Below, piece after piece: positions 1 through 40,388 of a stretch of 43,779 bases of DNA; positions within the stretch are counted from its first letter, which is position 1, and the number at the start of each line of letters is the position of its first letter. The notes beneath the pieces were generated by a model. It did not search any database, was not told where the DNA came from, and saw only the letters and a list, made by a program, of their open reading frames with translations. The DNA is taken from IMG/VR virus record IMGVR_UViG_2534681654_000010, one strand, 5' to 3'. Position numbers and translations under genes: made by a program. Source of the stretch: a virus (Duplodnaviria > Heunggongvirae > Uroviricota > Caudoviricetes).

Positions 1-2
1 CT

Positions 3-113: not shown

Positions 114-193
114 CTACCGGCGCGACGATGATGCGGGCCTGTGGAGTTCAGCCGATCTGACTTATGTCATTACCTATGAAATGTGAGGACGAT

Positions 194-934: not shown

Positions 935-949
935 TCCGGAGAATCAGCG

Positions 950-1788: not shown

Positions 1789-2854
1789 ACCGGTAGGCGA
1801 TCTGGTCGTTGATTTAAGTCTGGATGCGGCCAGATTTGACGAGCAGATGGCCAGAGTCAGGCGTCATTTTTCCGGTACGGAAAGTGATGCGAAAAAAACA
1901 GCGGCAGTCGTTGAACAGTCGATGAGCCGGCAGGCGCTGGCTGCACAGAAAGCGGGAATTTCCGTCGGGCAGTATAAAGCCGCCATGCGTATGCTGCCTG
2001 CGCAGTTCACTGACGTGGCCACGCAGCTTGCAGGTGGGCAAAGTCCGTGGCTGATCCTGCTGCAACAGGGGGGGCAGGTGAAGGACTCCTTCGGCGGGAT
2101 GATCCCCATGTTCCGGGGGCTTGCCGGTGCGATCACCCTGCCGATGGTGGGGGCCACCTCGCTGGCGGTGGCGACCGGTGCGCTGGCGTATGCCTGGTAT
2201 CAGGGCAACTCAACCCTGTCCGATTTCAACAAAACGCTGGTCCTTTCCGGCAATCAGGCCGGGCTGACGGCAGATCGTATGCTGGTCCTGTCCAGAGCCG
2301 GGCAGGCGGCAGGGCTGACGTTTAACCAGACCAGCGAGTCACTCAGCGCACTGGTTAAGGCGGGGGTAAGCGGTGAGGCTCAGATTGCGTCCATCAGCCA
2401 GAGTGTGGCGCGTTTCTCCTCTGCATCAGGCGTGGAGGTGGACAAGGTCGCTGAAGCCTTCGGGAAGCTGACCACTGACCCGACGTCGGGGCTGACAGCG
2501 ATGGCGCGCCAGTTCCATAACGTGACGGCGGAGCAGATTGCGTATGTTGCTCAGTTGCAGCGTTCCGGCGAAGAAGCCGGGGCATTGCAGGCGGCGAACG
2601 AGGCCGCGACGAAAGGGTTTGATGACCAGACCCGCCGCCTGAAAGAGAACATGGGCACGCTGGAAACCTGGGCAGACAGGACAGCACGGGCATTCAAATC
2701 CATGTGGGATGCGGTGCTGGATATTGGTCGTCCTGATACCGCGCAGGAGATGCTGATTAAGGCAGAGGCCGCGTTTAAGAAAGCGGACGATATCTGGAAT
2801 CTGCGCAAGGATGATTATTTTGTTAACGATGAAGCGCGGGCGCGTTACTGGGAT
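1781..2854 (+). pseudogene. H: tape measure protein H, N-terminal fragment (codons 1-358), disrupted by insertion
   Basis: MAEPVGDLVVDLSLDAARFDEQ…DEARARYWD matches the lambda gpH N-terminus; after codon D (2852-2854) the frame reads 7 unrelated codons (IARRFF*) into the inserted element and stops at 2875. Confidence 0.9.
2850..2854. repeat. target-site duplication GGGAT, left copy
   Basis: GGGAT ends the H-homologous left flank; the identical pentamer begins the H-homologous right flank at 41610-41614. Joining the flanks with one copy restores …tac tgg gat gat cgt… (YWDDR). Confidence 0.8.
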
Positions 2855-2936
2855 ATAGCGCGGCGATTTTTTTGATACCGATTTGCATTTCATTTGATAC
2901 CGCTGAAAAACGCCGATACGCAACTTATTTGATACT
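2855..2936. repeat. element end (Mu right-end equivalent) with three TTTGATAC(C) transposase-binding-like repeats
   Basis: TTTGATAC at about 2871-2879, 2893-2901 and 2928-2936; reverse complements (GGTATCAAA) recur at the other end. Confidence 0.6.
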
Positions 2937-2981
2937 AAATCGGCGCTTTTCTTTTGAGTTTTAGAATGAGTTTTTAAGCGC

Positions 2982-3719
2982 TCATTCACTCTCTTTCAAA
3001 CCAGTTTTAACTGTTTGTGGTTTTGGGTAAGGCTGGACTTTGAATAGCTTTGTGTTGAGGCGTTTTCTGGCCCTCTTGTTCAGAAACCGGATGTAACGAA
3101 ACTGTCGGAACTTATGAACACTGGCTCTGTCAATATTAGCCCTCAGATGTTCACCTCGTTGTCCGCCTCGTTTAATGGCATTCCTGCAAATCTCGTGATA
3201 CCACTCGCCATCAAGTTCATAGAATATTGATTCATGGCTGCCTACATAATCAAAATTGCTTGCCTGATACACGACACCAAGACAGCCACAACGCTCATCT
3301 GCAAACGACTGAACCCACTGTACCTGCGGATAAAGCTGCCTGATTAGCTTGAGCGCGTAACTGATTGCCCTTGATTCGGAGTTTCTCGGCATACAGTCAT
3401 GCAGCCATAGCCGGTTAAGCTCCATATATTCTCGGTTCTGCGTACCCGTTACGACGCGTGCACCACTGTTTGGGTTAAGGGCGTAACCCCATTGCATTAC
3501 GCCAACAAGTTCCCGTTCTGAAAATATGCCCAGATGAAGGTAGGAGTTATTTACGAAACGGTGGCTGTAATGTTTATTGACGATGACCAGTCTGGCCAGC
3601 CAGCAACTTATTGTCTCAACCCGCAACTCACGGGAGCCATAACCAACGATATTGTCGTTATAGCGAATAAGTTCAGGCGTGCTGATGATTCGGGATGTGA
3701 CTTGCTTTCTGTTCCCCAC
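2982..3719 (-). CDS. mom: DNA modification protein Mom (adenine modification, anti-restriction)
   Basis: Product …[59 protein letters not shown]… matches my recollection of Mu Mom; last gene before the element end; 5' end overlaps com. Exact start codon uncertain. Confidence 0.8.
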
Positions 3720-3873
3720 GACAGGATTTCCTTGTGTATGTGGGGTGCTCTGTGGCGCTCGGAGATGTGATTTGATTGAGGGTTTTACAGCGCGGACATT
3801 TTACTTCCAGATAACTGAAACTGGCCCGTGCCAGTAGCTTATTGCAGTGTCGGCACCGTATGTTTCGATACAT
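3673..3873 (-). CDS. com: Com zinc-finger translational activator of mom
   Basis: [14 protein letters not shown]…CPRCK… has the CxxC…CxxC zinc ribbon and resembles Mu Com; AGGAGG RBS upstream of the ATG at 3873; 3' end overlaps mom. Confidence 0.75.
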
Positions 3874-3960
3874 GACCGCATAACCTCCTGCTTTGTTGTT
3901 GATGCCTTTCTCATGCAATCGATCGACAAAAACGATCGATTCGATTTGTTTAATTGATAC
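3874..3960 (-). promoter_or_regulatory. putative mom promoter/operator region with clustered Dam GATC sites
   Basis: GATC at about 3921-3924 and 3934-3937 (two more near 4044-4059) just upstream of com, followed by an AT-rich tract; Mu mom expression is Dam-methylation dependent. Confidence 0.4.
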
Positions 3961-4284
3961 AACAAATAGATTGAAAAGTCATCAACAATGATTCAGGGAG
4001 GTGATTATTTACTTAAAGAAAACGAAGAGTTAGGTGGTGAAAACGATCATAAAATGATCATTTTATTGACTTTTTATACAGTGAAGGTAGGATCACGCGT
4101 ATATGTAGTATGTTTCAAATCAACAGGATACTACATAAAAGTGAAACCCAGCATAGCTGGAACTATGCTGGGTCAATCTGTAAAAACTTGCATCAATGCT
4201 TTACTTCGAGCTCGTGGCGTATCCTATGATATTCCCCGGTCTCCTGTAAAGCAGAGATGCATAAAAAGGAGATCTTTATCATGG

Positions 4285-4452
4285 ATGAAAGAGCCTGTTT
4301 GCCCTGCCTGTAAGACTCCCTTACAGCTCATCTATCGCCGTTCTCGATCTCAAAATGGCAAGACATACAAACCCAAAAATGCTTCCTGTTTCAGGATGCT
4401 GATATGTCCTGCCTGTTCTCCCAGGAGGGAAAATACACAAAACGTGCATTAA
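4285..4452 (+). CDS. hypothetical small zinc-ribbon protein (CPAC…CPAC), speculative
   Basis: 55-codon frame MKEPVCPACKTPLQ…CFRMLICPACSPRR… with two CPxC motifs; AAAAAGGAGA lies upstream but is better spaced for a 10-codon ORF at 4281; AT-rich context. Confidence 0.3.
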   Translation: MKEPVCPACKTPLQLIYRRSRSQNGKTYKPKNASCFRMLICPACSPRRENTQNVH

Positions 4453-4461
4453 CAAACTCAC

Positions 4462-4481
4462 CCGGCAGGGAAACCTGCCGG
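4462..4481. terminator. perfect 8-bp stem / GAAA-loop hairpin between convergent ORFs
   Basis: CCGGCAGG-GAAA-CCTGCCGG between the plus-strand ORF ending 4452 and the minus-strand ORF ending 4491; no strong U-tract on either side. Confidence 0.4.
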
Positions 4482-4490
4482 TCGGTATTG

Positions 4491-4736
4491 TTACATCATA
4501 GTACCGTCAGTTCCGGGCTGAACCGGCTCTGGTTGCTCTACGGGTTGAGGATCATTTTCCGTGCTGTTTTCAGCCGGAGAACGGCCAACCATTCGGGCCA
4601 GCACTTCATCAACATATGCGTCGATTTGTGCCTCAAAATCCTTGCGAACCTGCGCCTTCAGCACGCGGTTCACTTCTTCAGAATAAAGTGCCTGTTTGAC
4701 AAGCTCTTCAGTAACCGTGCCTTTAATCTCTGGCAT
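4491..4736 (-). CDS. hypothetical 81-aa acidic protein
   Basis: ATG preceded by AAAGGAGA RBS; no family recognised. Confidence 0.5.
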   Translation of the reverse strand: MPEIKGTVTEELVKQALYSEEVNRVLKAQVRKDFEAQIDAYVDEVLARMVGRSPAENSTENDPQPVEQPEPVQPGTDGTMM

Positions 4737-4771
4737 GAATATTCTCCTTTTGCAGGTATATTGCCCCGTTA

Positions 4772-4954
4772 TCAGAGCGGGGTCGGGTCGTTTGGGGATG
4801 ACGGTGCCTGTGCTGTTTTACTGAGTTTTTCAGCTGCCGCATCATCAATTTTACGGCGAATATAATTTCTGATGACCTTATAACCACCGCTCACCAGATA
4901 TAACGCACTGACCACAGCGCAGAAATAAAGCAGCATTGTATGAACGAATGTCAT
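4772..4954 (-). CDS. hypothetical 60-aa single-pass membrane protein
   Basis: ATG preceded by AAGGTAAGG RBS; hydrophobic N-terminal helix (MLLYFCAVVSALYLVSGG) then a charged tail. Confidence 0.5.
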   Translation of the reverse strand: MTFVHTMLLYFCAVVSALYLVSGGYKVIRNYIRRKIDDAAAEKLSKTAQAPSSPNDPTPL

Positions 4955-5100
4955 ATAACCTTACCTTTGATATTGACTACATAATTCGTTATCGGGTAAA
5001 AACATCGAAGCGACTGATAACCACTCCTTCGGGAGTATTTTTATTTTCCTTTATGGGTTAGGTAGCTCCCGCCAGCCATATCATGACCGGCGGGATTTTT

Positions 5101-7140
5101 TTATTCTGTTACCGCTTTTTTCACTTCCACCACAATGCTGTCAATCAGCACCGGGTAAGTTGCATTTTTTGTGATATCCGTTACGCGGAGTTTGTCCACC
5201 GGGAAAGTTCCTACTGGTGACTGCGTCAGGGTAAACGCGGCACCATCCTGACCATCAATAACCGGAATAACCTGAAGGCTGTTATTTCCTGCAAAACGGA
5301 AGGCCAGCGTATGCCATTCATTATCAAATGCACCAAAGGTTCCCAGTTTCTGGTTATTTGTTGCCACTTTTGCATTGTGGTACATCACATTCAGGTCTTT
5401 TGCGTCTGTCTGGATGTAGAACGATGCCAGCAGATTATTCCCTGCATCCCCTGTCAGGGTGACACCCTGCGGCAGAGAGGAAACCGGCCAGTAAAGCCCC
5501 ATGACATACTGGTTTGCCACCAGGTCGCCAGGTACTTTAAAACGACAACTGATTAAACCACCATTTTTCAGCAGTTCAGCACCAGTACCGGCATCATGAT
5601 CCAGATACCAGGATGATTTACCTGTTTCCTTGGTCAGTTTCATTGCCTTACCACCTGTGCCTCCTGCATCACTGATAATTTCAGCTTTACCGCCAGCCGG
5701 CTCCCAGCCCTGGGCTTTCAGATTTCCTTCTGACTCACTGACACGATAAGACAGCAGTGTTGTGGTTACTGCTTCAGTTTCTGAAGGTGACGGCACTGGT
5801 GCTTCAGTTTCAGAAGATGGAACATCGGCTTTTACTGTGGTTCGCCCCGCATGAGTCAGAACTGCCGTGGCCAGACGGTCGGAAATAATCCCACGACGTG
5901 CCCATGAACTGAAATGGCTGGCCCGGTCCGCAGATGTCCAGGTGGCGGCACTGTTACGCCACGTTGAGCCGTAATAACCAATGGATTCAATATCCGGGTC
6001 TTCTGCCGGATTGTTGGTGGGTACATTCGCGTCATTTTCATCTGTCATTAATGGAACGAAATGAATGTTTTTATCTGTTTTGTTTTTGTAGCCGCCATAG
6101 ATTGCCTGGTATGCCGGTTCATTTTTCTGTTTCCAGAAATACGTGGTATCGCCACAAATCCACGGAACGCCAGCAGCACTGCCACCGGTACACTGTTCCG
6201 CCTGTTCAGCCAGGTCTGCGCGGAATTTTTCCACCATCGCCAGAAACAGCGCGGAATGCTCCGTCGGCTTCGCATCAATATCAAACTCGCCCTGCATCCA
6301 CACCACAGCAAGCAGGCGGTTTTTCGGGTTCTTCGCCAGTGCCGCTTTTGTCCGGCTGATTAAGTCCTTATACAGCGGCTTATCCACACCCCAGCGGGCT
6401 GAGTCCTCTGAAGCACCCGTGCTGTCACTGTACGTGCCGTCAGCACCCGCCGTGAATGCAGAACCACCACGGCAGCAGGGAACCAGCAGAATCCCCGCAT
6501 CTGCCGGAATAAACGGCAGCAGTTTTTTGGCAATGTGAAGCCCCTGACCCACGGTGCCATATTGCCCTTTAGCCACATCCGCTTTCGGGTGATTTTTTCC
6601 ACTCATATCCTGCACATCATGCAGACAGTGGTCGGCCAGAATGATGTCGTTATACTGACAGGCTTTACCTCCCGGCGTGACTGTACTGCGACGGGCTAAC
6701 TGCATAATACGCGGTTCGGGGCGGTCATATGTCTCCGGCAGTGGCAGACCTTCACCGTAAGCCATACCGTTTGACTGACCAGCAAGAACCACCACGTAAT
6801 ACCAGGAAGGGGAGCTGGAAGCAGTTTCATTTCCTGACGGACGGGTATGTGTTTCAGCATTATCCCAGTCTGACGGTTCAGCAGTACCGGCAACATCAGC
6901 ACTTAACGGAATGACCGCACCAATACCCGCTCCGGTAATTTCCACACTCGGATCACCGGATACTGGCCTTACCCACAGGCAATCCCGTGTATTAAAACTG
7001 ATGAGACAGTCAGCAAATGTCATTCCTCCTTTTGTTTCGGCCGGAGGAAAGGGAGCCTCAAGAAATGCCGCTGTACCACCGGAAACTTTAACAGTAAAGT
7101 TTCCGGGCATTGATGATAGTTGAACCCATTTGGACGTCAT
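5101..7140 (-). CDS. SGNH/SASA-family esterase, NanS-p-like (putative sialate O-acetylesterase) with C-terminal lectin-like domain
   Basis: 679 aa; GQSN serine motif in YYVVVLAGQSNGMAYGEG and overall resemblance to prophage-encoded NanS-p esterases of E. coli; lies between gin and com-mom. Confidence 0.6.
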   Translation of the reverse strand: MTSKWVQLSSMPGNFTVKVSGGTAAFLEAPFPPAETKGGMTFADCLISFNTRDCLWVRPVSGDPSVEITGAGIGAVIPLSADVAGTAEPSDWDNAETHTRPSGNETASSSPSWYYVVVLAGQSNGMAYGEGLPLPETYDRPEPRIMQLARRSTVTPGGKACQYNDIILADHCLHDVQDMSGKNHPKADVAKGQYGTVGQGLHIAKKLLPFIPADAGILLVPCCRGGSAFTAGADGTYSDSTGASEDSARWGVDKPLYKDLISRTKAALAKNPKNRLLAVVWMQGEFDIDAKPTEHSALFLAMVEKFRADLAEQAEQCTGGSAAGVPWICGDTTYFWKQKNEPAYQAIYGGYKNKTDKNIHFVPLMTDENDANVPTNNPAEDPDIESIGYYGSTWRNSAATWTSADRASHFSSWARRGIISDRLATAVLTHAGRTTVKADVPSSETEAPVPSPSETEAVTTTLLSYRVSESEGNLKAQGWEPAGGKAEIISDAGGTGGKAMKLTKETGKSSWYLDHDAGTGAELLKNGGLISCRFKVPGDLVANQYVMGLYWPVSSLPQGVTLTGDAGNNLLASFYIQTDAKDLNVMYHNAKVATNNQKLGTFGAFDNEWHTLAFRFAGNNSLQVIPVIDGQDGAAFTLTQSPVGTFPVDKLRVTDITKNATYPVLIDSIVVEVKKAVTE

Positions 7141-7239
7141 AATAATCAGCCTGTTCCTGAATAAACTGAATTATCATATCCACAGACCGATAAACGCCAT
7201 TTTGCGTTAATTCAGTAAAGGCCCAACAAAGAGAGCGTC

Positions 7240-7800
7240 TTATTTTTCCGAAACGCTCGCAGGATAATAACGATAAAGGGTTGAAAGGCCGATATCAAAA
7301 ATAAGTGCCACCTGTCTTCGACTGACACCCCCGGCCAGTAAACGCCCGACCTGCTCGTATTGTTCCTGCGTGAGACGACGGGGTCTGCCGCCGGTTCGTC
7401 CCCTTTCACGGGCAGCTGCAAGACCAGCCCGTGTCCGTTCGACAATTAATTCACGCTCCATTTCTGCCAGCGCACCCATTATGTGAAAAAAGAAGCGCCC
7501 CATGGGGGGTGACGTATCAATGTTGTCAGTAAGACTACGAAAATTTATCCCCTGTTGCTGTAATTCATCTGTCAGCGCAACAAGGTGGCGCATACTGCGC
7601 CCCAGCCTGTCCAGTTTCCAGACCATCAGTGTGTCACCGGGTTTTAGTTTCTTCAGTGCCCGCTTCAGTCCCGGCCGCTGTGTCGTTTTACCACTCATTT
7701 TATCTTCAAAAATCTGCTCACATCCTGCACATTCCAGCGCATTTCTTTGTAAACCTGTGTTCTGGTCATTTGTTGATACGCGTATATAGCCAATCAGCAT
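7240..7800 (-). CDS. gin: Gin-type serine recombinase (DNA invertase)
   Basis: MLIGYIRVSTNDQNTGLQRNALECAGCEQIFEDKMSG… is a typical Gin/Hin/Pin/Cin resolvase-family invertase with C-terminal HTH; adjacent to the invertible tail-fibre segment. Confidence 0.9.
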   Translation of the reverse strand: MLIGYIRVSTNDQNTGLQRNALECAGCEQIFEDKMSGKTTQRPGLKRALKKLKPGDTLMVWKLDRLGRSMRHLVALTDELQQQGINFRSLTDNIDTSPPMGRFFFHIMGALAEMERELIVERTRAGLAAARERGRTGGRPRRLTQEQYEQVGRLLAGGVSRRQVALIFDIGLSTLYRYYPASVSEK

Positions 7801-7854
7801 GTATTTACCTTCCTTAAAAAGAGGTGGAAAGGCCTTTTAAAGCAGATATACGGC

Positions 7855-7880
7855 ATCCCTGAAACCTTCGGTTTACGGGA
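7855..7880. repeat. gix-like recombination site (gin-proximal), at the outer edge of a ~170-bp imperfect inverted repeat
   Basis: Reverse complement reads TCCCGTAAACCGAAGGTTTCAGGGAT, resembling Gin/Hin/Cin crossover sites; the half-site TCCCGTAAACC is shared with the site at 9231-9256. Inverted homology (~80%) extends from about 7873 to 8040. Confidence 0.55.
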
Positions 7881-8226
7881 TACTGTAAACAGGGCCGCGA
7901 ATGCCCTGCCATCGAACGGAGCGGCTGTTGCAGCGAATAAACTCGCCACTCCAAGAAATATTAATGGTGTCCCATTTGACGGAACGCAGGATATAAATAT
8001 TACATCGGGGATGACGCAGTCTGTGGCTGACTCACGTTATGTTCAAAGCATTCGAAGAGGTTCAAGGTCAACGATTGGAATGCAATATAATATTTTTGAG
8101 GTTCCTGACGGATGCGTACTTACAGGGCTTGATGTCGCTGGTGATGGTAATGCAACGGTAACCGCATATTATCGACCTGTTCAGTTTCTGATAGATGGTT
8201 CGTGGAAAACAGCTTCCAGCGCATAA
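7861..8226 (+). other. silent alternative tail-fibre C-terminal cassette (S'v), no start codon of its own in this orientation
   Basis: Frame open from 7777 to 8226; encodes …ALPSNGAAVAANKLATPRNINGVPFDGTQDINITSGMTQSVADSRYVQ… homologous to the C-terminal region of the expressed fibre gene on the opposite strand, then a different tip (…YYRPVQFLIDGSWKTASSA). Confidence 0.65.
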
Positions 8227-8305
8227 AAGTGCAGTAGTTCAAAAAACAGATTATCTGAATAAATATATGATGATTTTGTCTTTTCAACAAAAACAAGGTG
8301 AAATA

Positions 8306-8827
8306 ATGGAGCTTATTAACGTAAAACGATATTACCCGGAACACAAACCCTATGGTGAGGATGTTCAGTATTTCCAGAGTGAGGACGGAAGGGATTTTTA
8401 TGAATCTATCCCGCTTTTCACAAAGAAATACAAACTCTGTATTTCGCCTGTAACGGGTATTATCTGCTCTGTTGCTGAAGATGTCTCTGCTTTATATCCG
8501 GCAGGTTTTACTGTTGTTGAAGTGGACGAACTGCCGGAAGGTGTGAATATTGACGGTAACTGGCAGTTTTCTGATGGCCTGATATCAAAGGTGCCGGTAA
8601 ACTGGAAGACGGTTGCTGAAAAGCGCCGCTCATCGCTGCTCCAGGAAGCCAACGAAACTGTGGATGACTGGAAAACGGAATTAAAACTGGACATGATTAG
8701 CGATGAAAATAAATTACAGCTGACGCGCTGGATGGCGTATATCCGACAGCTTAAAGAAATGCACTTTAATGATATTGCCAGTGAGGGGCATTACCAGGCG
8801 ATTCCCTGGCCGGAAAAACCGGAATAA
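8306..8827 (+). CDS. tail fibre assembly chaperone (U'/Tfa-like), inside the invertible segment
   Basis: 174-aa product MELINVKRYYPEHKPYGEDVQYF… with a Tfa-type C-terminus; follows the S'v cassette on the same strand; AT-rich. Confidence 0.7.
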   Translation: MELINVKRYYPEHKPYGEDVQYFQSEDGRDFYESIPLFTKKYKLCISPVTGIICSVAEDVSALYPAGFTVVEVDELPEGVNIDGNWQFSDGLISKVPVNWKTVAEKRRSSLLQEANETVDDWKTELKLDMISDENKLQLTRWMAYIRQLKEMHFNDIASEGHYQAIPWPEKPE

Positions 8828-8861
8828 TTCAGAGGGTGCATTCAGCACCCTTTTCTGTGGT

Positions 8862-9773
8862 TTACACTGAACTTACCGTTCTCCAGGCATTATTAATATA
8901 AATCTGAACCGGGCGATAATAGACCCCACCGATATTGTCCGCAGACCGGGAGCCGGTTTCCTGCACGTTAATTCCGGAAAGCATACAACCGGAAGGTGCG
9001 CTGTAATTCCATGACATTTCATTGCCTCCGGGTGAATGATAGCTCTGTGCTCCAAGCTGAACATTCTGTACATACCGGCCATCTGCGGTTGACTGCGTCA
9101 TTCCTGACGTGATGTTGATATCCAGCGTTCCGTCAAAAGGAACACCATTAATATTTCTTGGGGTGGCGAGTCTGTTTGCTGCCACGGCGGTTCCACCCGA
9201 TGGCAGGGCATCAGCAGCCTTATTTACCGTTTCCCGTAAACCAACGTTATCGATAAAAGCGCCTTTATCCGGAATGTCTGCGCCGTTCTGCTCCCTGCGC
9301 AGGTAACGGTTATCACCTTCGCTTTTGCTGTAAACATCCAGATTATTACGGGCGGTTCCCGCATTCTCCAGGTCGGCAAGGTTCTGATCCTTCGCCAGAG
9401 CATTAACGTCACCGGGACCAAGACTGTTTTTTGTGGCAAGCGCCCCAAGACCAAGATAACCACGGGCAAGACGCTGGGCTTCCGCACCGGCATCAGCAAT
9501 TTCTTTCAGGTTGTTTTTCCGGGAAAAGGCATTCGCAGCGATAATGGCTTTAATGGACAGCGTAAGCTGGTTTAACTGCGCCTTATCCGGCTGAATACTG
9601 GCTTCAGCCAGAATATTCAGCAGTTCGGCCTGGAGAATATTCAGCCAGTCCTGACCAATCCAGCTGATACCTTTTTGTCCGTCACCTTCGGTAAACCAGG
9701 TGGTGGTATTACTCTGCGCCGGTGCCAGCGCAGGCATATTCGCCACGCCGGAATTATTATCAACATGGAACAT
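8862..9773 (-). CDS. S: tail fibre protein (constant N-terminus fused to the currently expressed variable C-terminus, Sv)
   Basis: Start MFHVDNNSGVANMPALAP… overlaps the stop of the upstream gene (TAATG); the C-terminal ~120 aa lie inside the invertible segment and end …GGVYYRPVQIYINNAWRTVSSV. Confidence 0.75.
   Translation of the reverse strand: MFHVDNNSGVANMPALAPAQSNTTTWFTEGDGQKGISWIGQDWLNILQAELLNILAEASIQPDKAQLNQLTLSIKAIIAANAFSRKNNLKEIADAGAEAQRLARGYLGLGALATKNSLGPGDVNALAKDQNLADLENAGTARNNLDVYSKSEGDNRYLRREQNGADIPDKGAFIDNVGLRETVNKAADALPSGGTAVAANRLATPRNINGVPFDGTLDINITSGMTQSTADGRYVQNVQLGAQSYHSPGGNEMSWNYSAPSGCMLSGINVQETGSRSADNIGGVYYRPVQIYINNAWRTVSSV
9231..9256. repeat. gix-like recombination site inside the tail-fibre gene
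   Basis: TTCCCGTAAACCAACGTTATCGATAA resembles Gin/Cin/Hin crossover sites; inverted ~170-bp homology with 7873-8040 runs inward from here (about 9065-9240). Confidence 0.55.
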
Positions 9774-10333
9774 TAAATATTCTCCTCTTCGTGACTGTTT
9801 GCATATACGTAAATAAACGTCTGCCATGCAGGCTTATAACGGTTCAGAATACATTCCAGCGCACCGCCTTCATAAATACGCAGCGGCGTGAGAATATCAT
9901 CCAGCACATTCATATTCCGGTAGCCGGTTTCACTGTTAATCGTGACAATACTGACCCACTGTGAATCCGGTGATGGCTGAATATCTATTTCATAACCAAA
10001 CTCTGCCGCAAACCGGATATAAAATTCACGGTTAAGAGAGGGTTTCATCCGGTATTTATTCCCGGCATAACGCTGACGCTCCTGAATGGTTGCGCCGGTC
10101 ATATCACATTCCGGTAACCCCAGATAACGCTCCCAGTCTTCCAGCAGCAGACGGGATGAATCAGGAAAACGTTCTGCCAGCATCTGGTTACCGGTCCAGG
10201 AAACACGCTCCGTGGAATGACTGAGGCCCAGGCACAAAGCCGCAAGAACGGATGACGGCCGCTTATCCCATGCCAGCCCGTCAGGCAGCAACTGCAACAG
10301 GGCGCGCTGATGCGGGGTCAGGGTTACAGCCAT
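9773..10333 (-). CDS. Mu gp48-like tail protein (DUF2313/YmfQ-like)
   Basis: 186-aa ORF between the baseplate J-like gene and the tail fibre; position and size match Mu gp48. Confidence 0.55.
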   Translation of the reverse strand: MAVTLTPHQRALLQLLPDGLAWDKRPSSVLAALCLGLSHSTERVSWTGNQMLAERFPDSSRLLLEDWERYLGLPECDMTGATIQERQRYAGNKYRMKPSLNREFYIRFAAEFGYEIDIQPSPDSQWVSIVTINSETGYRNMNVLDDILTPLRIYEGGALECILNRYKPAWQTFIYVYANSHEEENI

Positions 10334-11409
10334 GTGATTTCCCCCACGGTCAGCAACTCTGTATCTCCGGCCATCACGGACTTCAGCGGGCTGCGAACTT
10401 CAAAATCCTCCAGTCCTTTCACCCCTGCAACAGCCCGCCAGAATGATGAAGGCAATACAAGTCCACCCGGCCGCGATTCGTTATAAAGCAGGTCTGTTAA
10501 TGCCTGTTTTACGGCAGCCTGATTTTCCGGCGTTTTGGGTACAATCCTGATCTCAAACGCCACCGGCTTATTGGTCAGCTTAAACACGCTGATTGTCGGC
10601 CCAAGTGGCTGACCAACGGGCTGGCCCGTCGCCGGATCATCATGACTGCGGATATAATCCGCCACCCGCTTCACATCACCTTCTCCGGGGAAAATGTCAG
10701 GGTTATTATCCTGAACAAAAGTCACACCAACACTACCCGCCTCAGGCCATTCAGGCTTACACCATGCCCGCGTCACGCCCGGTACTTCCCGTGCCCAGCG
10801 TTCAAAATCATACTGTGTTCCCCCTGATGGCGGGTTCTGTACCCGGAATACCAGCCTGGACAGCAACTCCGGCACCGTTTCCACATCCGCACCACCGGTG
10901 AGTCCCGTGCCGGTGACCGTGGCTGTCTGGTTGATGCCCGCCTGTGGCGTGATAAAGGACAGGCGGGTTCCGGTCGGGGTATTTCCAGCGCGCCCCGCAC
11001 TTTCCGCCTCCACATTAACATTCAGTGTTCCGGCTTTTCCGGTCGCAGAGCCGGTGATGCGGTACACAACCCCATCGCTTCGCTGAAGGAGTACGCCTTC
11101 CGTGATCCCTGCATCCGTGGTCAGCATCAGTTGTACCGGTCCGTCAGCGCGGGAAGCCGGTTTACGGATGACACCCCAGAATGCGCAGTGTTTCAGGAGT
11201 TCGGCTTCATCAGCTTCTGTCGGAATTATCTGCCGGGAGATCCAGGCCAGATGTTCATGCTCCTGTGCTGACAGACCCGCCAGTGCATACGCAATGGCAT
11301 TCAGGGTGGTTTCATTCACGCCCGGCTGCGAACCGGGCAGGCGCTGGCTGATATCCTGTTGTGTCTGTGTGATCAGTTGCGCCAGTGGTAAGGGCTGATA
11401 AGGCATCAT
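10324..11409 (-). CDS. baseplate J-like protein (Mu gp47-like)
   Basis: 361 aa, overlapped with neighbours in a Mu-type baseplate module. Confidence 0.6.
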   Translation of the reverse strand: MMPYQPLPLAQLITQTQQDISQRLPGSQPGVNETTLNAIAYALAGLSAQEHEHLAWISRQIIPTEADEAELLKHCAFWGVIRKPASRADGPVQLMLTTDAGITEGVLLQRSDGVVYRITGSATGKAGTLNVNVEAESAGRAGNTPTGTRLSFITPQAGINQTATVTGTGLTGGADVETVPELLSRLVFRVQNPPSGGTQYDFERWAREVPGVTRAWCKPEWPEAGSVGVTFVQDNNPDIFPGEGDVKRVADYIRSHDDPATGQPVGQPLGPTISVFKLTNKPVAFEIRIVPKTPENQAAVKQALTDLLYNESRPGGLVLPSSFWRAVAGVKGLEDFEVRSPLKSVMAGDTELLTVGEITWL

Positions 11410-11843
11410 TCCCCCTTCATATCAGCATAAAAAATCATCGGATGTCTGCTTCCGTCCGGCAGGGTGATTTTCACGGAAAGCGAAAGGCGAGCATGCCCCA
11501 CACGCATGGCATGACATACCACGGATGTGGCAGCACCGCTTTTATGCAGCCACGCCAGCGCTTCATCAGCATAGGCCTGTGCACGGCTGACCACGGAGGA
11601 CAGCGTCTTTTCACGGCTTAACAGCCAGAGACGGGAGCCAACGGGGCGCTCCCGGAAACTGTCTCCCCACCATCCCCGACGGTCACGGGTGCCGTCAGGG
11701 ATTTCATCGGAATCCAGCGCCCGCCTGTCCGTAAACAGTGAAATAATGACCGCAGTCAGCAGGCTGTTATCCGTCAGAAGATCTGCGCCGTTCAGTTGCA
11801 GGGAACCGCAACCCTGATCCCAGACGACAGCAATATCAGCCAT
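11406..11843 (-). CDS. Mu gp46-like baseplate protein
   Basis: Start MADIAVVWDQGCGSLQLNGADLL… chosen at an internal ATG that overlaps the upstream stop; position matches Mu gp46. Confidence 0.55.
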   Translation of the reverse strand: MADIAVVWDQGCGSLQLNGADLLTDNSLLTAVIISLFTDRRALDSDEIPDGTRDRRGWWGDSFRERPVGSRLWLLSREKTLSSVVSRAQAYADEALAWLHKSGAATSVVCHAMRVGHARLSLSVKITLPDGSRHPMIFYADMKGE

Positions 11844-12450
11844 TCTCTGGTCCTCCCGTTTTGCTGCCTTCACCGTTATCGTGATGCACATGACCTGAAT
11901 AGGTGATCCCGGCAATAACCGCTTCGGACATCGTGAACGTCCCCTGTGATCTTCCGGTGCCGTCAATGGACACATTGCCTTTGACATGCAGGTTCTTATC
12001 CACTGTGACATTACCGGTAAAGTGAGCCTCCGGTGTATCCACCTGAACACCTTCATCGGCGTAAATCTCCAGCGTCTTACAGGTCACAATGATCCGGCCG
12101 TTCTTTGTCAGACGTATACGGTGCCCCTCATGGTGATACACGCCGGTATCTCCGGCGGTAAGTCCGGTCGGGCGACTGCGGCGGTCTTCCACCACAAGCA
12201 CCACGGCCTGATCCCGTTGTCCGCCAGCACAGGCCAGAAAAACTTCCGCACCAGGCAGGGGGACGCTGATTTGCCCGTACTGCTGGGGGCGTTCAACGTC
12301 ATCAAAGGTTTCACCATCCATACCGGTGATTTGCACATTCTGGATTTTCAGCGTGTCCGTTGTGCCGGTCAGTACACCACGCCCGAACAGCAGACGAACA
12401 CCCCGCATCACGGGGGCCAGAAGGCGGCTGATGACTTCGTCATTCATCAT
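11836..12450 (-). CDS. baseplate spike / assembly protein V-like (Mu gp45-like)
   Basis: 204-aa product with a gpV/VgrG-like fold signature (…GDTGVYHHEGHRIRLTKNGRIIV…). Confidence 0.6.
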   Translation of the reverse strand: MMNDEVISRLLAPVMRGVRLLFGRGVLTGTTDTLKIQNVQITGMDGETFDDVERPQQYGQISVPLPGAEVFLACAGGQRDQAVVLVVEDRRSRPTGLTAGDTGVYHHEGHRIRLTKNGRIIVTCKTLEIYADEGVQVDTPEAHFTGNVTVDKNLHVKGNVSIDGTGRSQGTFTMSEAVIAGITYSGHVHHDNGEGSKTGGPENG

Positions 12451-31134: not shown

Positions 31135-31560
31135 TCAGAAAAGTGGCGGTTGCGTTCTTGCCAGATGCAGACGGCGCTGTTCGCGTATGACGGTATAAAT
31201 CTGGGTTTCTGACATCCGGTAATGGCGGCGAAGGGATTCAATTTTCTCGCCCCGGTCCCAGCGCGAAAATATCTCATTGTTTCGCAGCTCGGCAAAGAGA
31301 GATTCCCCGACCGGCAGGTAATAACCCCGTCCGCCCATATAGGCTGCCTGAGCCGCAGCCACCTTGCGTGCCAGTTTACCGGCCAGTACCGGCTCAATCC
31401 CCTGACGCTGAAGTTCTGCGCCGGTGACTTCAACCAGTTCTGACAGGGTCCGCGGCCAGTTCTTTTTGAGAACATCATCAGGGATGTCATCAAGGCGGTC
31501 GATAAGGGCGTGCAGTTGCTCACTGTCACCACCAAACATGCTCATCTGAGTTTCTGCCAT
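31135..31560 (-). CDS. Mor/C-family transcriptional activator (middle/late gene activator)
   Basis: 141 aa with the Mor/C-family pattern (…LIDRLDDIPDDVLKKNWPRT…IYTVIREQRRLH…); the only family member seen between gemA and lys. Confidence 0.7.
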   Translation of the reverse strand: MAETQMSMFGGDSEQLHALIDRLDDIPDDVLKKNWPRTLSELVEVTGAELQRQGIEPVLAGKLARKVAAAQAAYMGGRGYYLPVGESLFAELRNNEIFSRWDRGEKIESLRRHYRMSETQIYTVIREQRRLHLARTQPPLF

Positions 31561-32986: not shown

Positions 32987-33168
32987 TTATGTTTTCCAGT
33001 AATACGGATATATATGTCGATAAGAAGATTCATAATAAACAGGAAGAGCGACATCCTGATAAAGAACCATATATCCGGCATCATGGACAGATTTCCTGTA
33101 ACCGCAAATATAAAACCAACCCCCCACACAGGAACGATAATTGCGAAAAAAACAAGTCTCCTTATCAT
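32983..33168 (-). CDS. hypothetical small two-helix membrane protein
   Basis: 61 aa, very hydrophobic; AT-rich. Confidence 0.4.
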   Translation of the reverse strand: MIRRLVFFAIIVPVWGVGFIFAVTGNLSMMPDIWFFIRMSLFLFIMNLLIDIYIRITGKHK

Positions 33169-33716
33169 GTCGTTAACTCCCGTAATACAACATCTTCGGC
33201 AGTCCGACGACGGTGATAAATAAAACTCACCGTGCCCTCGGATAATTCAAATTTCTCGCCGATTTCCCTAAAGGTAAGACGCCGTGGTGATTCAGCATCC
33301 CGTAATTCACGAATAAGATGAACATCATCGTCAGGTATGCGGGTAAAAGGCAGTAATTCTCCGTATTTTTTCATGCTTACGCCAATATATCGCGCCCGAT
33401 TGTGGACAGAATCCCGGTCTCGCCCCAGATATTCTCCTATTTGCTTACCGGTCATCGTCCTGGCATTTTTTCGGATAAATTTATCTTCATCAGGTTTAAA
33501 TCTGAGGCGTTTGCATTTGAGCAACTCCGGGTAAGTACCGCGTAATAAAACAATCCGGTTATGTACACCCCAGAAACTTCTTTTTATCCTGACAGCAATA
33601 TCCTTAACCGGGGTGGATGGATAAAGCGCAATCAGCAGCGCATCTTCTTCAGGTGTCCATGCGCGAACATGAGCGGGTGCACGGCCTTTTCTCCCCATGG
33701 GTTGTAATTTCATCAT
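33165..33716 (-). CDS. hypothetical DNA-binding protein with Myb/SANT-like and HTH-like repeats
   Basis: 183 aa; WTPEEDALLIALY resembles a Myb/SANT helix; two further HTH-like segments. Confidence 0.45.
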   Translation of the reverse strand: MMKLQPMGRKGRAPAHVRAWTPEEDALLIALYPSTPVKDIAVRIKRSFWGVHNRIVLLRGTYPELLKCKRLRFKPDEDKFIRKNARTMTGKQIGEYLGRDRDSVHNRARYIGVSMKKYGELLPFTRIPDDDVHLIRELRDAESPRRLTFREIGEKFELSEGTVSFIYHRRRTAEDVVLRELTT

Positions 33717-33719
33717 GCA

Positions 33720-34235
33720 TCACCCCCCGACTCGCTTTTCGGCAGCATAAAACTCATCAGACAGAATTTCGGTCATTTTCCGTTTTGCGGAATCATCTTC
33801 GCACTGAAGGTAAATAACATCGTCAACGCAGAACCACTTCACGGGACCATGCAATATTGCTGAGAAGTCAATACCCAGCCAGAACAACAGTGCATCGGTT
33901 CTGGCATACGTGACGGGCGAATATTCACGCCACAGACTGTTAAGTTCGTCAGAGGCAACGCGCAGGGCTTTGGGAATACGTGATGTGCGCGGTGTGCAGC
34001 TCCAGCCATTCGACGCAGTCGGTTTTCGCCATAAGTCGCGATGAAAAGGATATTTGTCATCCATAAAGCGCAGCCCTTTAAAACAAAAGCCACTGATACC
34101 GGATACAAATACCGACCGGCACGCAACATTCAGCACGGCCTCAAGGCGTTTTGCCTCATCCTTAACTTTCTGGCAGTCCTGCTGATATTTTTGCCACGCG
34201 GCCAGCGCGGAAGGGTTTGATGTTTTAAAGAACAT
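33720..34235 (-). CDS. hypothetical protein (early region)
   Basis: 171-aa ORF, tight spacing with neighbours. Confidence 0.45.
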   Translation of the reverse strand: MFFKTSNPSALAAWQKYQQDCQKVKDEAKRLEAVLNVACRSVFVSGISGFCFKGLRFMDDKYPFHRDLWRKPTASNGWSCTPRTSRIPKALRVASDELNSLWREYSPVTYARTDALLFWLGIDFSAILHGPVKWFCVDDVIYLQCEDDSAKRKMTEILSDEFYAAEKRVGG

Positions 34236-34768
34236 TACGCCACCTCCGCAGATATCCCGGCAGGTGCAGCCGTCCGGTCAACAATCAGGTAACGCAGAAC
34301 ATGTTCGGTGATATTCCAGCCGCTTAAACCGCAGATAATGACACCCAGGCGAATGTCGATATACGCCATCACAAACTGGGGCACGCCTTCTTTCATGGCC
34401 TGCTCATCAACTTCAACCACCACATAAACGGTTTCGCAGGTCAGTACGCCCTGAGCAAATTCCCACGCCATCGACGGAATATCATGCCCCTCAATCCACG
34501 GCAGGGATTTTCTGAAGCTGCACCACTGAACATCATCAGCCGCACCTTCCTGGCTGCATTTGCGACGAACCGGCTGCACCGGGCGGGGACGCGGAATATC
34601 ATAAAAACCGTTACATTCCGTCAGCACCCCGGCATCGACCGCATCACGCAAAAAATAAACCATCGAGGATGGCGGCATATTCATTTTTTCAGCCAGAATG
34701 CCGCAGGTCAGACGCCCGTAAATACTCAGCCAGTTTTTAACCCCTTCAAGCACTTTTGCATCAATCAT
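34235..34768 (-). CDS. hypothetical protein, possible N-terminal winged-helix
   Basis: 177-aa ORF sharing a stop/start junction with the next gene. Confidence 0.45.
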   Translation of the reverse strand: MIDAKVLEGVKNWLSIYGRLTCGILAEKMNMPPSSMVYFLRDAVDAGVLTECNGFYDIPRPRPVQPVRRKCSQEGAADDVQWCSFRKSLPWIEGHDIPSMAWEFAQGVLTCETVYVVVEVDEQAMKEGVPQFVMAYIDIRLGVIICGLSGWNITEHVLRYLIVDRTAAPAGISAEVA

Positions 34769-34771
34769 GAA

Positions 34772-35314
34772 TTATTCCTCCGTCAGCGCCACATATTCAG
34801 AATGTTTAATTTCCTGGCATTCTTCAGGAATACACCCTTTTATTTCCCTGCCATAAGCGCCTACTTTAAACACCACGCACAGGGCATCACGGGAGAGCGA
34901 CGGGGTCCACCAGGAGTCCGTGTTAAACATGGAGGGGATTCTCATTACCCCCAGCTTTTCACAGAGCCAGACAAGGAAATCAGGACGCTTTCTTAACTCA
35001 CGTTCAGCGGTTTCAATCATTGCGGCAATCGCCGGACCTTCAGGGCATGACTCATCAGGTCTGGCAATAAAGCACGGTCCGTCCCCGATAAAAGCCACAT
35101 CATCGCGCTTACGCCAGCCCGCAGGCAGAGCACCAGAAAAATAAAACTCACTGATTACGTCCATGGCAAACGGCTTTAAGCGCAATCCGGCAGCGCCTGT
35201 ATTTTTCAGTAATGCCCGAAGAATACTGTTGCGTAGCGGTAAAACAGTCTGTTGATATTTGGTGAAATATTTATTTGTCTGCACACGGTCTAATTTGAAA
35301 TAAAAATATGCCAT
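34772..35314 (-). CDS. hypothetical protein (early region)
   Basis: 180-aa ORF downstream of gam. Confidence 0.45.
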   Translation of the reverse strand: MAYFYFKLDRVQTNKYFTKYQQTVLPLRNSILRALLKNTGAAGLRLKPFAMDVISEFYFSGALPAGWRKRDDVAFIGDGPCFIARPDESCPEGPAIAAMIETAERELRKRPDFLVWLCEKLGVMRIPSMFNTDSWWTPSLSRDALCVVFKVGAYGREIKGCIPEECQEIKHSEYVALTEE

Positions 35315-35411
35315 ATATCCTGTTCCTTATTTTCAGTTTACAGGCGCAGGCAGTCCCCTGACGCGAGCGCCATAATTAAAACGAAGTGATATTTAATTGA
35401 TTAATGCGGTG

Positions 35412-35953: not shown

Positions 35954-36247
35954 TTATTGCAGTGTGCCTGATGCTTTATGCACGCGGTGGCGTTTAATGA
36001 TGGCATCCGCCCCAAAAGCCTGTACAGATGCCTGAAATTCCGCTGAGAGAAACTGAATAATTTCAGGGCTGTGATACTGGAGAATACTTGCATAAACGTC
36101 ACAGAGTGACGTCGGCCTGTTATTCGTATCACGTTCTGTTTTTACATCCACACCAATCTTTTCATGCACTTCAACACAGTCATTGCCTGCCGGTTTTTCG
36201 TCATGCGAAACATGCTTAAATTCAAAAATAACGCGTACTTTGCTCAT
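35954..36247 (-). CDS. hypothetical small protein, paralogue of the adjacent ORF
   Basis: Begins MSKVRVIFEFKHV…; the upstream neighbour begins MSKVVRIIFEYKEHV…. Confidence 0.45.
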   Translation of the reverse strand: MSKVRVIFEFKHVSHDEKPAGNDCVEVHEKIGVDVKTERDTNNRPTSLCDVYASILQYHSPEIIQFLSAEFQASVQAFGADAIIKRHRVHKASGTLQ

Positions 36248-36251
36248 GGAA

Positions 36252-36524
36252 TTACCCCTGCTGATTAAATTCATTACCTTTAATAACCCCGGAACGCATG
36301 CTCATATCTTTCATGAGCGCACTGGCTTTCATTGCCACAAGTTCAGCAAAGTCTCTGCTTTCCGCGAGCATAACCACCCCAAAAATCATGGCGGGTCCAT
36401 CACCTTTCTGCTTTATCCCGGTTGAACGTATGTCCAGACTTACCCCCATGCGCACTGTTCCATCAGCGTTTTTATGGATAACGTGCTCCTTGTATTCGAA
36501 AATAATGCGTACGACTTTACTCAC
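36252..36524 (-). CDS. hypothetical small protein, paralogue of the adjacent ORF
   Basis: 90 aa; shared N-terminal motif with 35954-36247. Confidence 0.45.
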   Translation of the reverse strand: MSKVVRIIFEYKEHVIHKNADGTVRMGVSLDIRSTGIKQKGDGPAMIFGVVMLAESRDFAELVAMKASALMKDMSMRSGVIKGNEFNQQG

Positions 36525-38297: not shown

Positions 38298-40388
38298 TCA
38301 GGCCAGCGGGTCATTTTCTTTTAATTTCGCTTCGAGCAACTGCAATCCCCGCTGGAAATTGCGCTCGTATTCTTCATCAGGCTCATCATCAATGGCAGGT
38401 TGCTGAACGGCCACCGTATTACCTACCGGGCGATAGATGTTTTCCAGCCAGGGCTCCTGCGGCTTGTGCTCCAGCACGTTGACAACCTCATCCTCGGCAT
38501 CACGGATTTTTTCCTCTGCGCGTTTACGCATGCCTTTAAGGCGTTGCTGCTGTTTGTAGTATTCCGCGCTAACCGGGAAGGCTTCGCGTTTATTACCGTC
38601 CCATACCGCCTCGCAAATCACGCTGCCATCCAGGCGACGTACGGTAATTCGTTCGGCATCATGAATGTCATAGCTGATAAGCACCTTGCGGCCATGCTCA
38701 TCACGCAGCTCGGGCGCGTAGTAAATATTATTCAGCCAGCGTATTTCACAGCGTCTTACAGGGCGTTCCACCATCGGCCGGAACATGTCCCGCAATTCCA
38801 CATCGGACAGCCATTCAATTTCCGTGTCCTCTTCCGCCAGGCGTTTTTTTCTGAACTCCGCCGGGCTGTAATGCTTGCCGTTCGGCTTCACCGGTAATTC
38901 ATCGTGCGGCCGGTTGTTGTACCACTCAACACCATCACGAATGGCATCAATCAGTTCAGACCAGGACGGTAAATCACGCATCGCTGACTGCTGCCGGGCG
39001 TTCAGCCGTTTGCCCTGTTGCAGGGCAGTAAATGCCGAGCGTAAATCGCGGTTGGTTTTGCGTAACGTCTCGCGATCTGCACCTTTCCCGAAATAGGTGC
39101 GGTATTTACGGGCTATGCGCATCGGTAATGTGCGGTTAAGCCGTTCGATAATGCCTCGTCCCTGCGGATTACCGGCAATCCCGGTCGGGTGATTAATCCC
39201 CAGTCGCGGCAGTATCCCCACAACCTCCTTATCCAGGATGTCGGCGGTTTCCCCGGAGCCGTTATCCGAGTAATACAGAAACGGTTTGCCGTGATGGCGA
39301 ATGCCGTGCTGTATGGCACCGGCTACGGCGAAAACATTTTCAGCCAGGTCAAGGCTCCAGCCCACCACAAAGCGCGTGCCACCGTCGATAACAAAGGTCA
39401 CTTCCGGTGCAAATGGCCGACCGTGAACCGGGTGTGCGCATTTCAGCTTCATGCCGTGACCGTCACCAATCCAGACATAATTCACCGGCATTCTGGACCA
39501 GTCGCGGCGCGTGAATCCCTCAAGCTGGCGGTATTCACTGCCGGTCACCCGGCCTTTTTGTTTCACCACTTCCGGCAGTTTCTTCATTGCGCGGCGAATG
39601 GTGTCATAAGACGGCATGATATCGAGCATATAAGGCTCATCAGCGTGCCGGTGCTGCCATTCAGCGACAAAATCCTCGTAAGCCTCGGTCATTGGTCGGC
39701 CGTTTGACTGGCGATACTGCGCCAGAAATTCGGGCAGCCAGTTAATATCTTCGGCTTTTATTTCCTGGCGTTTACCCGGTGCCAGTAAAAGCAGGCGTTC
39801 AGCGGCGTTCTGTGCCTTGTTAAAGGCCGCAATCCATCGCTTCAGCGTGATTTCACTCAACGCACGGCTGTTTCCCTTTTTGGCGTTCGCCGTCTCAACC
39901 ATTGCCACAATGCGCTCGTCCAGCTGTGAACGTGCCAGGTTGTCAACGATAAACCGGATAGCCTTCGCGCAGCTGAAACCGGGTTGTTGCGCGACTTTCA
40001 TCACTTCGCTGACGATCGCGATTCGTGCATCAGCCACCTGGCGCTGGTTTTCAGTCAGGGCATTGAGGCGTTCGACCATCAGTTGTGGTGATCCGCGATA
40101 TGCCTCCACCGCATCAACCACGTCAGATGAGCGTCTGGCCTTTGTCACCACCGGAGCCGGTGATTCATCGGCTTTTTGCGTCATCAGTTGCAGGGCATAA
40201 CGTTCACGTAATGCCTGCTGCGTCACTTCAGGTAAACAGTCGATGCTGTATTCAGTTGCTTTAGAGCCTGAGCGACGACGGGAACAACAGCTTTTCCCTT
40301 GTACGTAACGTTGTAATGCCTGGCGAATACCTTTTGTTGTAGCAGGCATTCCGGGCGCGCCAATCAGTTCTTTTGCAATGACATACAT
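38298..40388 (-). CDS. A: MuA-like DDE transposase
   Basis: 696 aa; strong overall resemblance to Mu transposase A, with central catalytic core and C-terminal acidic tail. Confidence 0.9.
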   Translation of the reverse strand: MYVIAKELIGAPGMPATTKGIRQALQRYVQGKSCCSRRRSGSKATEYSIDCLPEVTQQALRERYALQLMTQKADESPAPVVTKARRSSDVVDAVEAYRGSPQLMVERLNALTENQRQVADARIAIVSEVMKVAQQPGFSCAKAIRFIVDNLARSQLDERIVAMVETANAKKGNSRALSEITLKRWIAAFNKAQNAAERLLLLAPGKRQEIKAEDINWLPEFLAQYRQSNGRPMTEAYEDFVAEWQHRHADEPYMLDIMPSYDTIRRAMKKLPEVVKQKGRVTGSEYRQLEGFTRRDWSRMPVNYVWIGDGHGMKLKCAHPVHGRPFAPEVTFVIDGGTRFVVGWSLDLAENVFAVAGAIQHGIRHHGKPFLYYSDNGSGETADILDKEVVGILPRLGINHPTGIAGNPQGRGIIERLNRTLPMRIARKYRTYFGKGADRETLRKTNRDLRSAFTALQQGKRLNARQQSAMRDLPSWSELIDAIRDGVEWYNNRPHDELPVKPNGKHYSPAEFRKKRLAEEDTEIEWLSDVELRDMFRPMVERPVRRCEIRWLNNIYYAPELRDEHGRKVLISYDIHDAERITVRRLDGSVICEAVWDGNKREAFPVSAEYYKQQQRLKGMRKRAEEKIRDAEDEVVNVLEHKPQEPWLENIYRPVGNTVAVQQPAIDDEPDEEYERNFQRGLQLLEAKLKENDPLA

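Follow-up and report, generated by a model that had tools for sequence, protein, structure and literature searches.

The window, i.e., the whole 43,779-nt stretch of viral DNA analysed in this study (Caudoviricetes; IMG/VR virus record IMGVR_UViG_2534681654_000010), carries a complete Mu-like prophage with its genes on the minus strand. Three consecutive co-directional ORFs, hereafter p180, p177 and p171, are located between the gam homologue and the gene of an HTH-repeat protein, p183. This layout had been proposed by an earlier sequence-only reading and was confirmed by the ORF list and by the sequence (Table 1). The ORFs are also early-region genes of a Mu-like element, as the same reading had stated, and the products of two of them are assigned below as Mu_11 and Mu_12 orthologues. 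The p180 stop codon is followed by 3 nt and the p177 start codon (TAA, 3 nt, ATG), with GGAGGA as the Shine-Dalgarno sequence for p177; p177 and p171 overlap by 1 nt (TAATG), with GGAGGTG upstream of p171; and the p171 stop codon is again separated by 3 nt from the next start codon (TGA, 3 nt, ATG). These tight junctions (3, −1 and 3 nt) are in agreement with the translational coupling suggested earlier for the three ORFs, but they are unspecific, as every gap or overlap between the 17 genes from B to gemA is ≤23 nt, with the sole exception of the 97 nt that separate gam from p180. Since the whole B-to-gemA operon is tightly packed, tight spacing is not particular to p180-p177-p171.

Table 1. 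Early-region features of the window (positions are those of the window)
Feature	Position	Strand	Description
B	38227-37295	−	recognisable Mu-like gene
Gam homologue	35942-35412	−	Pfam Phage_Mu_Gam, E 1.5e-41; upstream of p180
Conserved non-coding element, 41 nt	35381-35341	−	after gam; 5' border of the variable slot
p180	35314-34772	−	ATG-initiated ORF, 180 aa
p177	34768-34235	−	ATG-initiated ORF, 177 aa
p171	34235-33720	−	ATG-initiated ORF, 171 aa
p183	33716-33165	−	183 aa; three sub-threshold HTH/Myb-like matches; downstream of p171
GemA	32139-31630	−	recognisable Mu-like gene
Mor/C-type activator	31560-31135	−	recognisable Mu-like gene

Each of the three proteins has full-length homologues in other phages, with 27–70% identity, and each matches a PHROG family with E-values of 7e-75 to 9e-106: PHROG 2260 for p180 (E 7e-75), PHROG 1949 for p177 (E 9e-106) and PHROG 2314 for p171 (E 8.6e-83). 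Together with the confident structural models obtained for p180 and p171, these matches indicate that the ORFs are genuine genes and not chance frames. The three PHROG families are all labelled "unknown function" and the current Mu record annotates both Mu_11 and Mu_12 as "hypothetical protein", so that the absence of a known function noted in the sequence-only reading holds. None of the three proteins matched NCBIfam models, enzyme families of Pfam and NCBIfam, the defence-system models of PADLOC-DB (E up to 0.1), or the Pfam families of the Mu early proteins Kil, Gam, GemA, Mor/C, Ner, Repc, A and B. Sequence and profile searches of the PDB with all three returned chance-level matches only (MIF, glutaredoxin and PnuC, E 0.4–1.7). 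When the three proteins were compared by tblastn with positions 1–12000 of Mu, Mu_11 and Mu_12 were the sole matches, and p180 had no counterpart in these first 12 kb. A search of the literature found nothing about the function of gp11, gp12 or DUF5420. The idea that the proteins are DNA mimics was discarded on the basis of their isoelectric points (7.5, 4.9 and 8.7), none of the three being strongly acidic.

p177 is assigned by sequence comparison as the orthologue of Mu gene 11 (Mu_11, formerly E10–E12). Its residues 1–177 align with Mu positions 6424–6951 with 67% identity (67.2%, tblastn), and residues 90–167 match the Pfam family PF25754, Gp11_C (E 3.5e-40; 136.6 bits for a gathering cut-off of 27), covering positions 1–78 of the 78 positions of the profile; PHROG 24761, a family of the stand-alone C-domain, is matched as well. 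p177 and Mu_11 are of nearly the same size (177 and 176 aa), and both have the Gp11_C domain and an early-operon position downstream of gam. However, Mu gene 11 comes directly after a short conserved element that follows gam, whereas here a DUF5420 gene is interposed. The N-terminal ~60 residues of p177 look like a winged-HTH domain: residues ~13–49 gave sub-threshold matches to HTH_10, HTH_24, HTH_20 and the CodY HTH (E 0.02–0.3), all in one register. This putative domain is followed by a Pro/Arg-rich linker (residues 63–80), the columns of which are variable in the alignment.

By the same type of evidence, p171 is assigned as the orthologue of Mu gene 12 (Mu_12, formerly E13), its residues 1–168 aligning with Mu positions 6954–7457 with 53% identity (tblastn, E about 4e-57). 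The Pfam family PF26885 is precomputed for 46/46 p171 homologues; in a local Pfam scan it was unmatched by p171, by one homologue and by Mu gp12, the model being perhaps absent from that copy. In Mu as in the window, gene 12 is immediately 3' of gene 11 and the stop and start codons of the two genes overlap. The downstream genes differ, with the small genes 13, 14 and 54 in Mu, and the 183-aa HTH-repeat protein and other small genes here.

The assignment of p180 is weaker than the Mu_11 and Mu_12 orthologies, and relies on transitive homology: p180 appears to be a divergent protein of the DUF5420 superfamily. No Pfam family was matched by p180 itself, DUF5420 included (E up to 0.1; the gathering score of PF17457 is 26 bits), and P0014, a relative with 38% identity to p180, scored 15 bits only against PF17457. 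Only 27 relatives emerged when 1.84 billion representative proteins were searched with a profile. Close relatives of p180 are few and the distant ones are DUF5420 proteins: PF17457 is matched by 19 of the 27 members of the alignment of these relatives (best E 9.3e-28), and p180 aligns end to end with the members of this alignment. p180 is 40% identical to a protein of Shigella phage SfMu named "DUF5420 family protein" in RefSeq, and shares 38% identity with a Salmonella protein to which NCBI gives the name DUF5420. It also possesses features of the family, namely (i) the YFK N-terminus, (ii) the PD...EG loop and (iii) the IKHSEYVALTEE C-terminus. In contrast to the basic loop typical of DUF5420 (PDRRYKEGK), the loop of p180 is acidic to neutral (PDESCPEGP), the basic version being lost. 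A scan of genome representatives for DUF5420 gave a single, weak locus. The earlier statement that the three ORFs belong to no recognisable family is hence corrected in that Mu gp11 (PF25754), gp12 (PF26885) and DUF5420 were identified, but it keeps its sense in that all of these are families of unknown function. The refuting observation named in the sequence-only reading, confident homology to Mu early proteins with a known role, was made only by half: the homology to Mu_11 and Mu_12 is confident, but these two proteins are themselves uncharacterised.

The AF2 models of p180 (pLDDT 94, pTM 0.85) and p171 (pLDDT 85, pTM 0.78) share a single succession of elements: a strand at the N-terminus, a long helix, a β-hairpin, a pair of helices, three strands and a helix at the C-terminus. 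A second hairpin of p180 corresponds to a lower-confidence loop in the p171 model. Pairwise BLAST and hhalign with shallow alignments gave no signal between p180 and p171, deeper alignments being needed. With these, hhalign aligned the DUF5420 and gp12 families colinearly over their full length (156 columns, E 2e-3 to 5e-4), and the E-value reached 2e-4 once distant gp12-like proteins of Klebsiella, Vibrio and Acinetobacter phages were added (151–156 columns over the comparisons); the hhalign probability was 31–53%. Controls with a reversed sequence or with unrelated families gave E-values of 0.24–0.6 over 9–35 columns. Two motifs are common to both families, an N-terminal strand [YF][YFW]K and a C-terminal EI-x-x-SE[FY]. 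These data give moderate support to p180 and p171 being, quite probably, distant paralogues, which would explain their similar size, and the two predicted structures probably represent one α/β fold without a solved relative: Foldseek searches of BFVD returned uncharacterised phage proteins only. The profile and fold searches recommended by the sequence-only reading have thus yielded the family links and the p180-p171 link, but no informative structural relative in the PDB or BFVD. The alignments also bear on the reading that the proteins are enzymes that modify small molecules or nucleic acids and whose folds have diverged beyond recognition. The invariant residues of either broad family are mostly hydrophobic or Gly/Pro, with no constellation of the catalytic type, which argues against an enzyme in the case of DUF5420 and gp12; we consider this reading very improbable.

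We then asked whether the three genes form a functional unit, as had been suggested from their size and coupling. Loci were gathered from IMG/VR with the DUF5420, gp11 and gp12 alignments and their genes were classed by HMMs; the resulting co-occurrence samples are query-biased and phylogenetically non-independent. With this reservation, the gp11-selected set comprises about 30 loci with DUF5420, gp11 and gp12, about 25 with gp11 and gp12 (the Mu arrangement), about 7 with DUF5420 and gp11, and about 15 with gp11 alone. In the three-gene loci, the order is invariably DUF5420-gp11-gp12 and the junctions are tight. The hypothesis that gp11 always needs a partner of the DUF5420 fold was rejected, as inspection of the flanking ORFs of at least 14 gp11-alone loci uncovered no hidden partner. 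In addition, one locus carries two DUF5420 genes in tandem (L032), and in a non-Mu phage (L040) DUF5420 is found alone between a primase-like and an apparent MazG-like gene (both assigned from their translations). gp12-like genes that have no accompanying gp11 were seen in two Klebsiella phages, one lytic and one transposable, in Vibrio phages of 83 kb, where a DNA ligase gene is nearby, and in a temperate Acinetobacter phage, where the operon includes Bet. Distant gp12-like genes of other temperate phages have CI-like repressors, RecT/Sak4/Bet, methylases and dNMP phosphatases as neighbours. The neighbourhoods of the distant gp12-like genes are early accessory and recombination territory.

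These distributions weigh on the idea that the three proteins constitute one dedicated host-takeover or anti-defence system, acting as a complex or as a pathway. The fixed order when all three are present, the coupled junctions, a position within the semi-essential early region beside the gene of the nuclease inhibitor Gam, and the variability of the p180 position described below, which is typical of accessory and counter-defence loci, are all consistent with it. However, all presence/absence combinations are found, gp11 being alone in 14 or more loci and DUF5420 being absent from Mu; relatives of p180 and p171 are found singly in unrelated phages; all 17 B-to-gemA genes are spaced just as tightly; and no defence-related PADLOC model was matched. 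We therefore consider a single dedicated system quite unlikely. The tight coupling and the near-constant DUF5420-gp11-gp12 order would also fit proteins that cooperate. As all gene combinations occur and tight packing is operon-wide, the "functional unit" idea is weak, and a three-gene unit is not supported, given the occurrence of gp11 with both, either or neither of its partners and of relatives on their own. An obligate three-part system does not fit easily with the presence/absence data, and p180, p177 and p171 are best interpreted as separate accessory genes.

The region between gam and gp11 was compared among close relatives of the prophage, defined as those with a gp11 at least 90% identical. 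A p180-type gene is present in 15 distinct loci, another DUF5420 allele in 6, and neither in 11. In the loci devoid of DUF5420, the flanks are 95–97% identical to the window; the match stops ~10 nt before the p180 ATG and returns ~5 nt before the p180 stop codon, so that the 548 nt carrying p180 are swapped for a 50-nt filler. This filler encodes a 14-codon mini-ORF and keeps the coupled arrangement with gp11. The p180 position, which extends from a conserved 41-nt element to the gp11 start codon, therefore behaves in these comparisons like a gene-sized replaceable slot and resembles the site of an accessory gene. In some loci, a ~212-aa protein takes the place of Gam before the same DUF5420-gp11-gp12 block.

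The 41-nt element that borders the slot (TTTTAATTAT GGCGC...CGTCAGGGGACTGC...GCGCC TG) is near-identical in 40 distinct intergenic sequences of Mu-like phages, Mu itself included. It is near-invariant although Gam is 57%, and the transposase 24% (partial alignment), identical to the Mu proteins. A scan of the element for promoters and terminators detected no consensus and nothing above the expectation from shuffled sequences, and the element had no match in Rfam. A structured-RNA hairpin is predicted, but this candidate was rejected, as a compensatory change was observed for 0/10 pairs.

Compared to Mu, the prophage has identities of 67% for gp11, 57% for Gam, 53% for gp12, 48% for B, 44% for GemA, 39% for Mor/C and 24% for the transposase A, the latter for a partial alignment of residues 306–686. 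gp11 is the constant member of the trio, and no other early protein is as well conserved between the prophage and Mu. This high conservation could result from a recent exchange of a gam-gp11 block instead of functional constraint. To our knowledge, several Mu semi-essential functions, such as arm, have no assigned ORF. The main rival to separate accessory genes is that at least one of the proteins, most plausibly gp11, is an auxiliary of Mu replication or transposition corresponding to arm, with a role in the transition from transpososome to replisome. Functions reported for the semi-essential region include sot, arm (amplified replication of Mu), cim and others (PMC4553209), and the genes of this region are largely uncharacterised (PMC3820752; PMC4553209). 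In favour of such a role, gp11 is constant in enterobacterial Mu-like early regions and its conservation exceeds that of B, Gam and the transposase, in line with a conserved host machine as its partner. However, no mapping of arm onto the gene 11 and 12 ORFs was found in the literature, the three proteins have no similarity to any replication protein, and DUF5420 and gp12 relatives are also present in phages that do not transpose. We consider such an auxiliary role unlikely.

Many STEC chromosomes (O157:H7, O26, O103) carry a 2.9-kb stretch with the three ORFs at 100% identity to the window. This stretch is found in 233 of 5,426 complete E. coli genomes (~4%), in which all three ORFs are annotated as "hypothetical protein", and is 95% identical to a Mu-like phage inserted in Stx phages. 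A further proposal is that the genes are expressed from the prophage and benefit the lysogen, by superinfection exclusion or defence, instead of acting in the lytic cycle. Lambdoid early leftward operons lie downstream of a CI-like repressor gene, on the same strand. Distant gp12-like genes are found in that position with respect to CI-like repressor genes, which is compatible with a lysogenic function, but this layout describes a lambdoid early leftward operon equally well. In Mu lysogens, low-level transcription from Pe through the semi-essential genes has been reported, together with the suggestion that the host may profit from some of these genes (PMC3820752). Against a lysogenic function, the three genes are within the repressor-controlled early operon, from gam to gemA, and no PADLOC model was matched; we regard it as very doubtful.

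The reading that we prefer, although tentatively, is that p180, p177 and p171 are three separate accessory genes of a Mu-like semi-essential early operon that encode non-catalytic early binding proteins. By extension from Mu, the early promoter transcript that encodes A, B and Gam would also give rise to the three proteins, which would be dispensable on laboratory hosts. All three may serve early in lytic growth as binders without catalytic activity. gp11 would be a modulator that binds DNA or protein and has a conserved partner of host or phage origin, and the probable DUF5420/gp12 paralogues, whose genes come and go independently on either side of gp11, would be exchangeable binders of host DNA-end/repair or defence proteins, in the manner of the accessory genes found around gam, bet and kil in other temperate phages. 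A more specific version of this model is conceivable but not likely: DUF5420 and gp12 would form one superfamily, with a fold that lacks a solved relative, whose interchangeable members inhibit DNA-end, repair or defence proteins of the host at an early stage, with a post-gam cassette slot, a regulatory or exchange role for the 41-nt element, and gp11 as a DNA-binding partner or regulator. It places the slot after gam, or after the DUF3164-like replacement of Gam, in transposable phages.

Taken together, these results do not reveal a new system: the families were already catalogued as being of unknown function, and the three ORFs are conserved hypothetical early genes. The new points are modest: DUF5420 and gp12 are probably linked in one superfamily, a gene-sized slot varies between relatives, a conserved element follows gam, and gp11 is unusually well conserved. 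Although Mu is among the classic model phages, no function has been assigned to most genes of its semi-essential early region. The ORFs are now tied to the named families Mu gp11, Mu gp12 and DUF5420; two of these, DUF5420 and gp12, are suggested to be a single superfamily with an unsolved fold; and the constant gp11 can be told apart from its variable neighbours, with a replaceable slot next to a conserved non-coding element. For deletion, expression and interaction studies, these genes offer targets that are concrete and inexpensive.

A parallel to this organisation, by genomic setting, is provided by the accessory genes of the lambdoid PL operon (ral, kil, gam, ea). These genes are small, dispensable, early and variable, and are clustered with nuclease-inhibitor and recombination functions. 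Lambdoid-type early leftward operons also host distant gp12-like genes. The analogy is one of genomic setting, with no relationship of sequence or fold between the PL accessory genes and the three Mu-like early genes described here.

The gene for p180, a divergent DUF5420-superfamily protein, occupies a gene-sized variable position (the slot) between gam and the gene for the Mu gp11 orthologue. Among the Mu-like loci collected from IMG/VR, p180 is absent in close relatives (L042 982-1126, compared with window 34772-35324; also L045, L052, L053 and L074), whose flanks are 95–97% identical to those of the window. Instead of about 548 nt, these loci have a 50-nt filler carrying a 14-codon mini-ORF (MKYVYIVINNVVGK), the end of which lies just ahead of the gp11 start. 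Other contents of the slot were also found: (i) a tandem DUF5420 pair in L032 (5473-6021 and 5997-6602) and (ii) a different, second DUF5420 allele in L050 (4407-4997), the backbone of which is otherwise near-identical. Replacement also affects Gam, the nuclease inhibitor: in L034 (5273-5911), as well as in L035, L036 and L038, an unrelated 212-aa protein, probably DUF3164-like (like the one in Klebsiella phage ST405-OXA48phi1.1), takes its place ahead of DUF5420-gp11-gp12.

The slot is preceded by a 41-nt non-coding element, TTTTAATTAT GGCGC..CGTCAGGGGACTGC..GCGCC TG, which is near-unchanging in 40 distinct Mu-like loci; the proteins flanking it share just 24–67% identity between this phage and Mu. 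The element is predicted to fold into a hairpin, with no supporting covariation, and had no match in Rfam.

Features of the prophage and their positions
Feature	Window coordinates	Strand	Remarks
Mor/C-family activator	31135-31560	minus	single in the prophage
183-aa protein	33165-33716	minus	next after p171, the Mu gp12 orthologue; matches PHROG 323 ('transcriptional regulator, D5-like')
gp11 (p177)	34235-34768		
Terminator-like hairpin and T-run	34659-34673	minus	within p177
41-nt element	35341-35381	minus	a short way after gam; Mu (L001) equivalent about 6366-6406
106-aa and 90-aa genes	35954-36274 and 36252-36524	minus	adjoining; upstream of gam
A (transposase)	38298-40388		

Compared with their Mu counterparts, gp11, Gam and gp12 are 67%, 57% and 53% identical, respectively, whereas the transposase shares only 24% identity with MuA over a partial alignment. 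As the transposition genes are far less conserved than the gam-gp11-gp12 block, sequence comparison suggests either that this block is under strong constraint or that it has been exchanged between lineages. Within p177, the terminator-like site falls inside the stretch of codons for PPSSMVYFLRD, a gp11 motif that is highly conserved; the count of such sites in the region was not above shuffled expectation.

On either side of the block lie further genes. The 183-aa protein bears three weak HTH/Myb-like segments, and shorter relatives of it (∼99 aa) are located upstream of gam in Mu-type loci. The 106-aa and 90-aa genes share a common start, MSKV(R)VIFEFK, and cross-match in tblastn; judged from their sequences, they look like tandem paralogues.

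The Mor/C activator of the prophage is 39% identical to Mu C versus 27% to Mu Mor, and a lysozyme gene lies directly 3' of its gene. With one activator, nearer to Mu C, and the lysozyme gene directly next to it, the arrangement is therefore unlike that of Mor and C in Mu.
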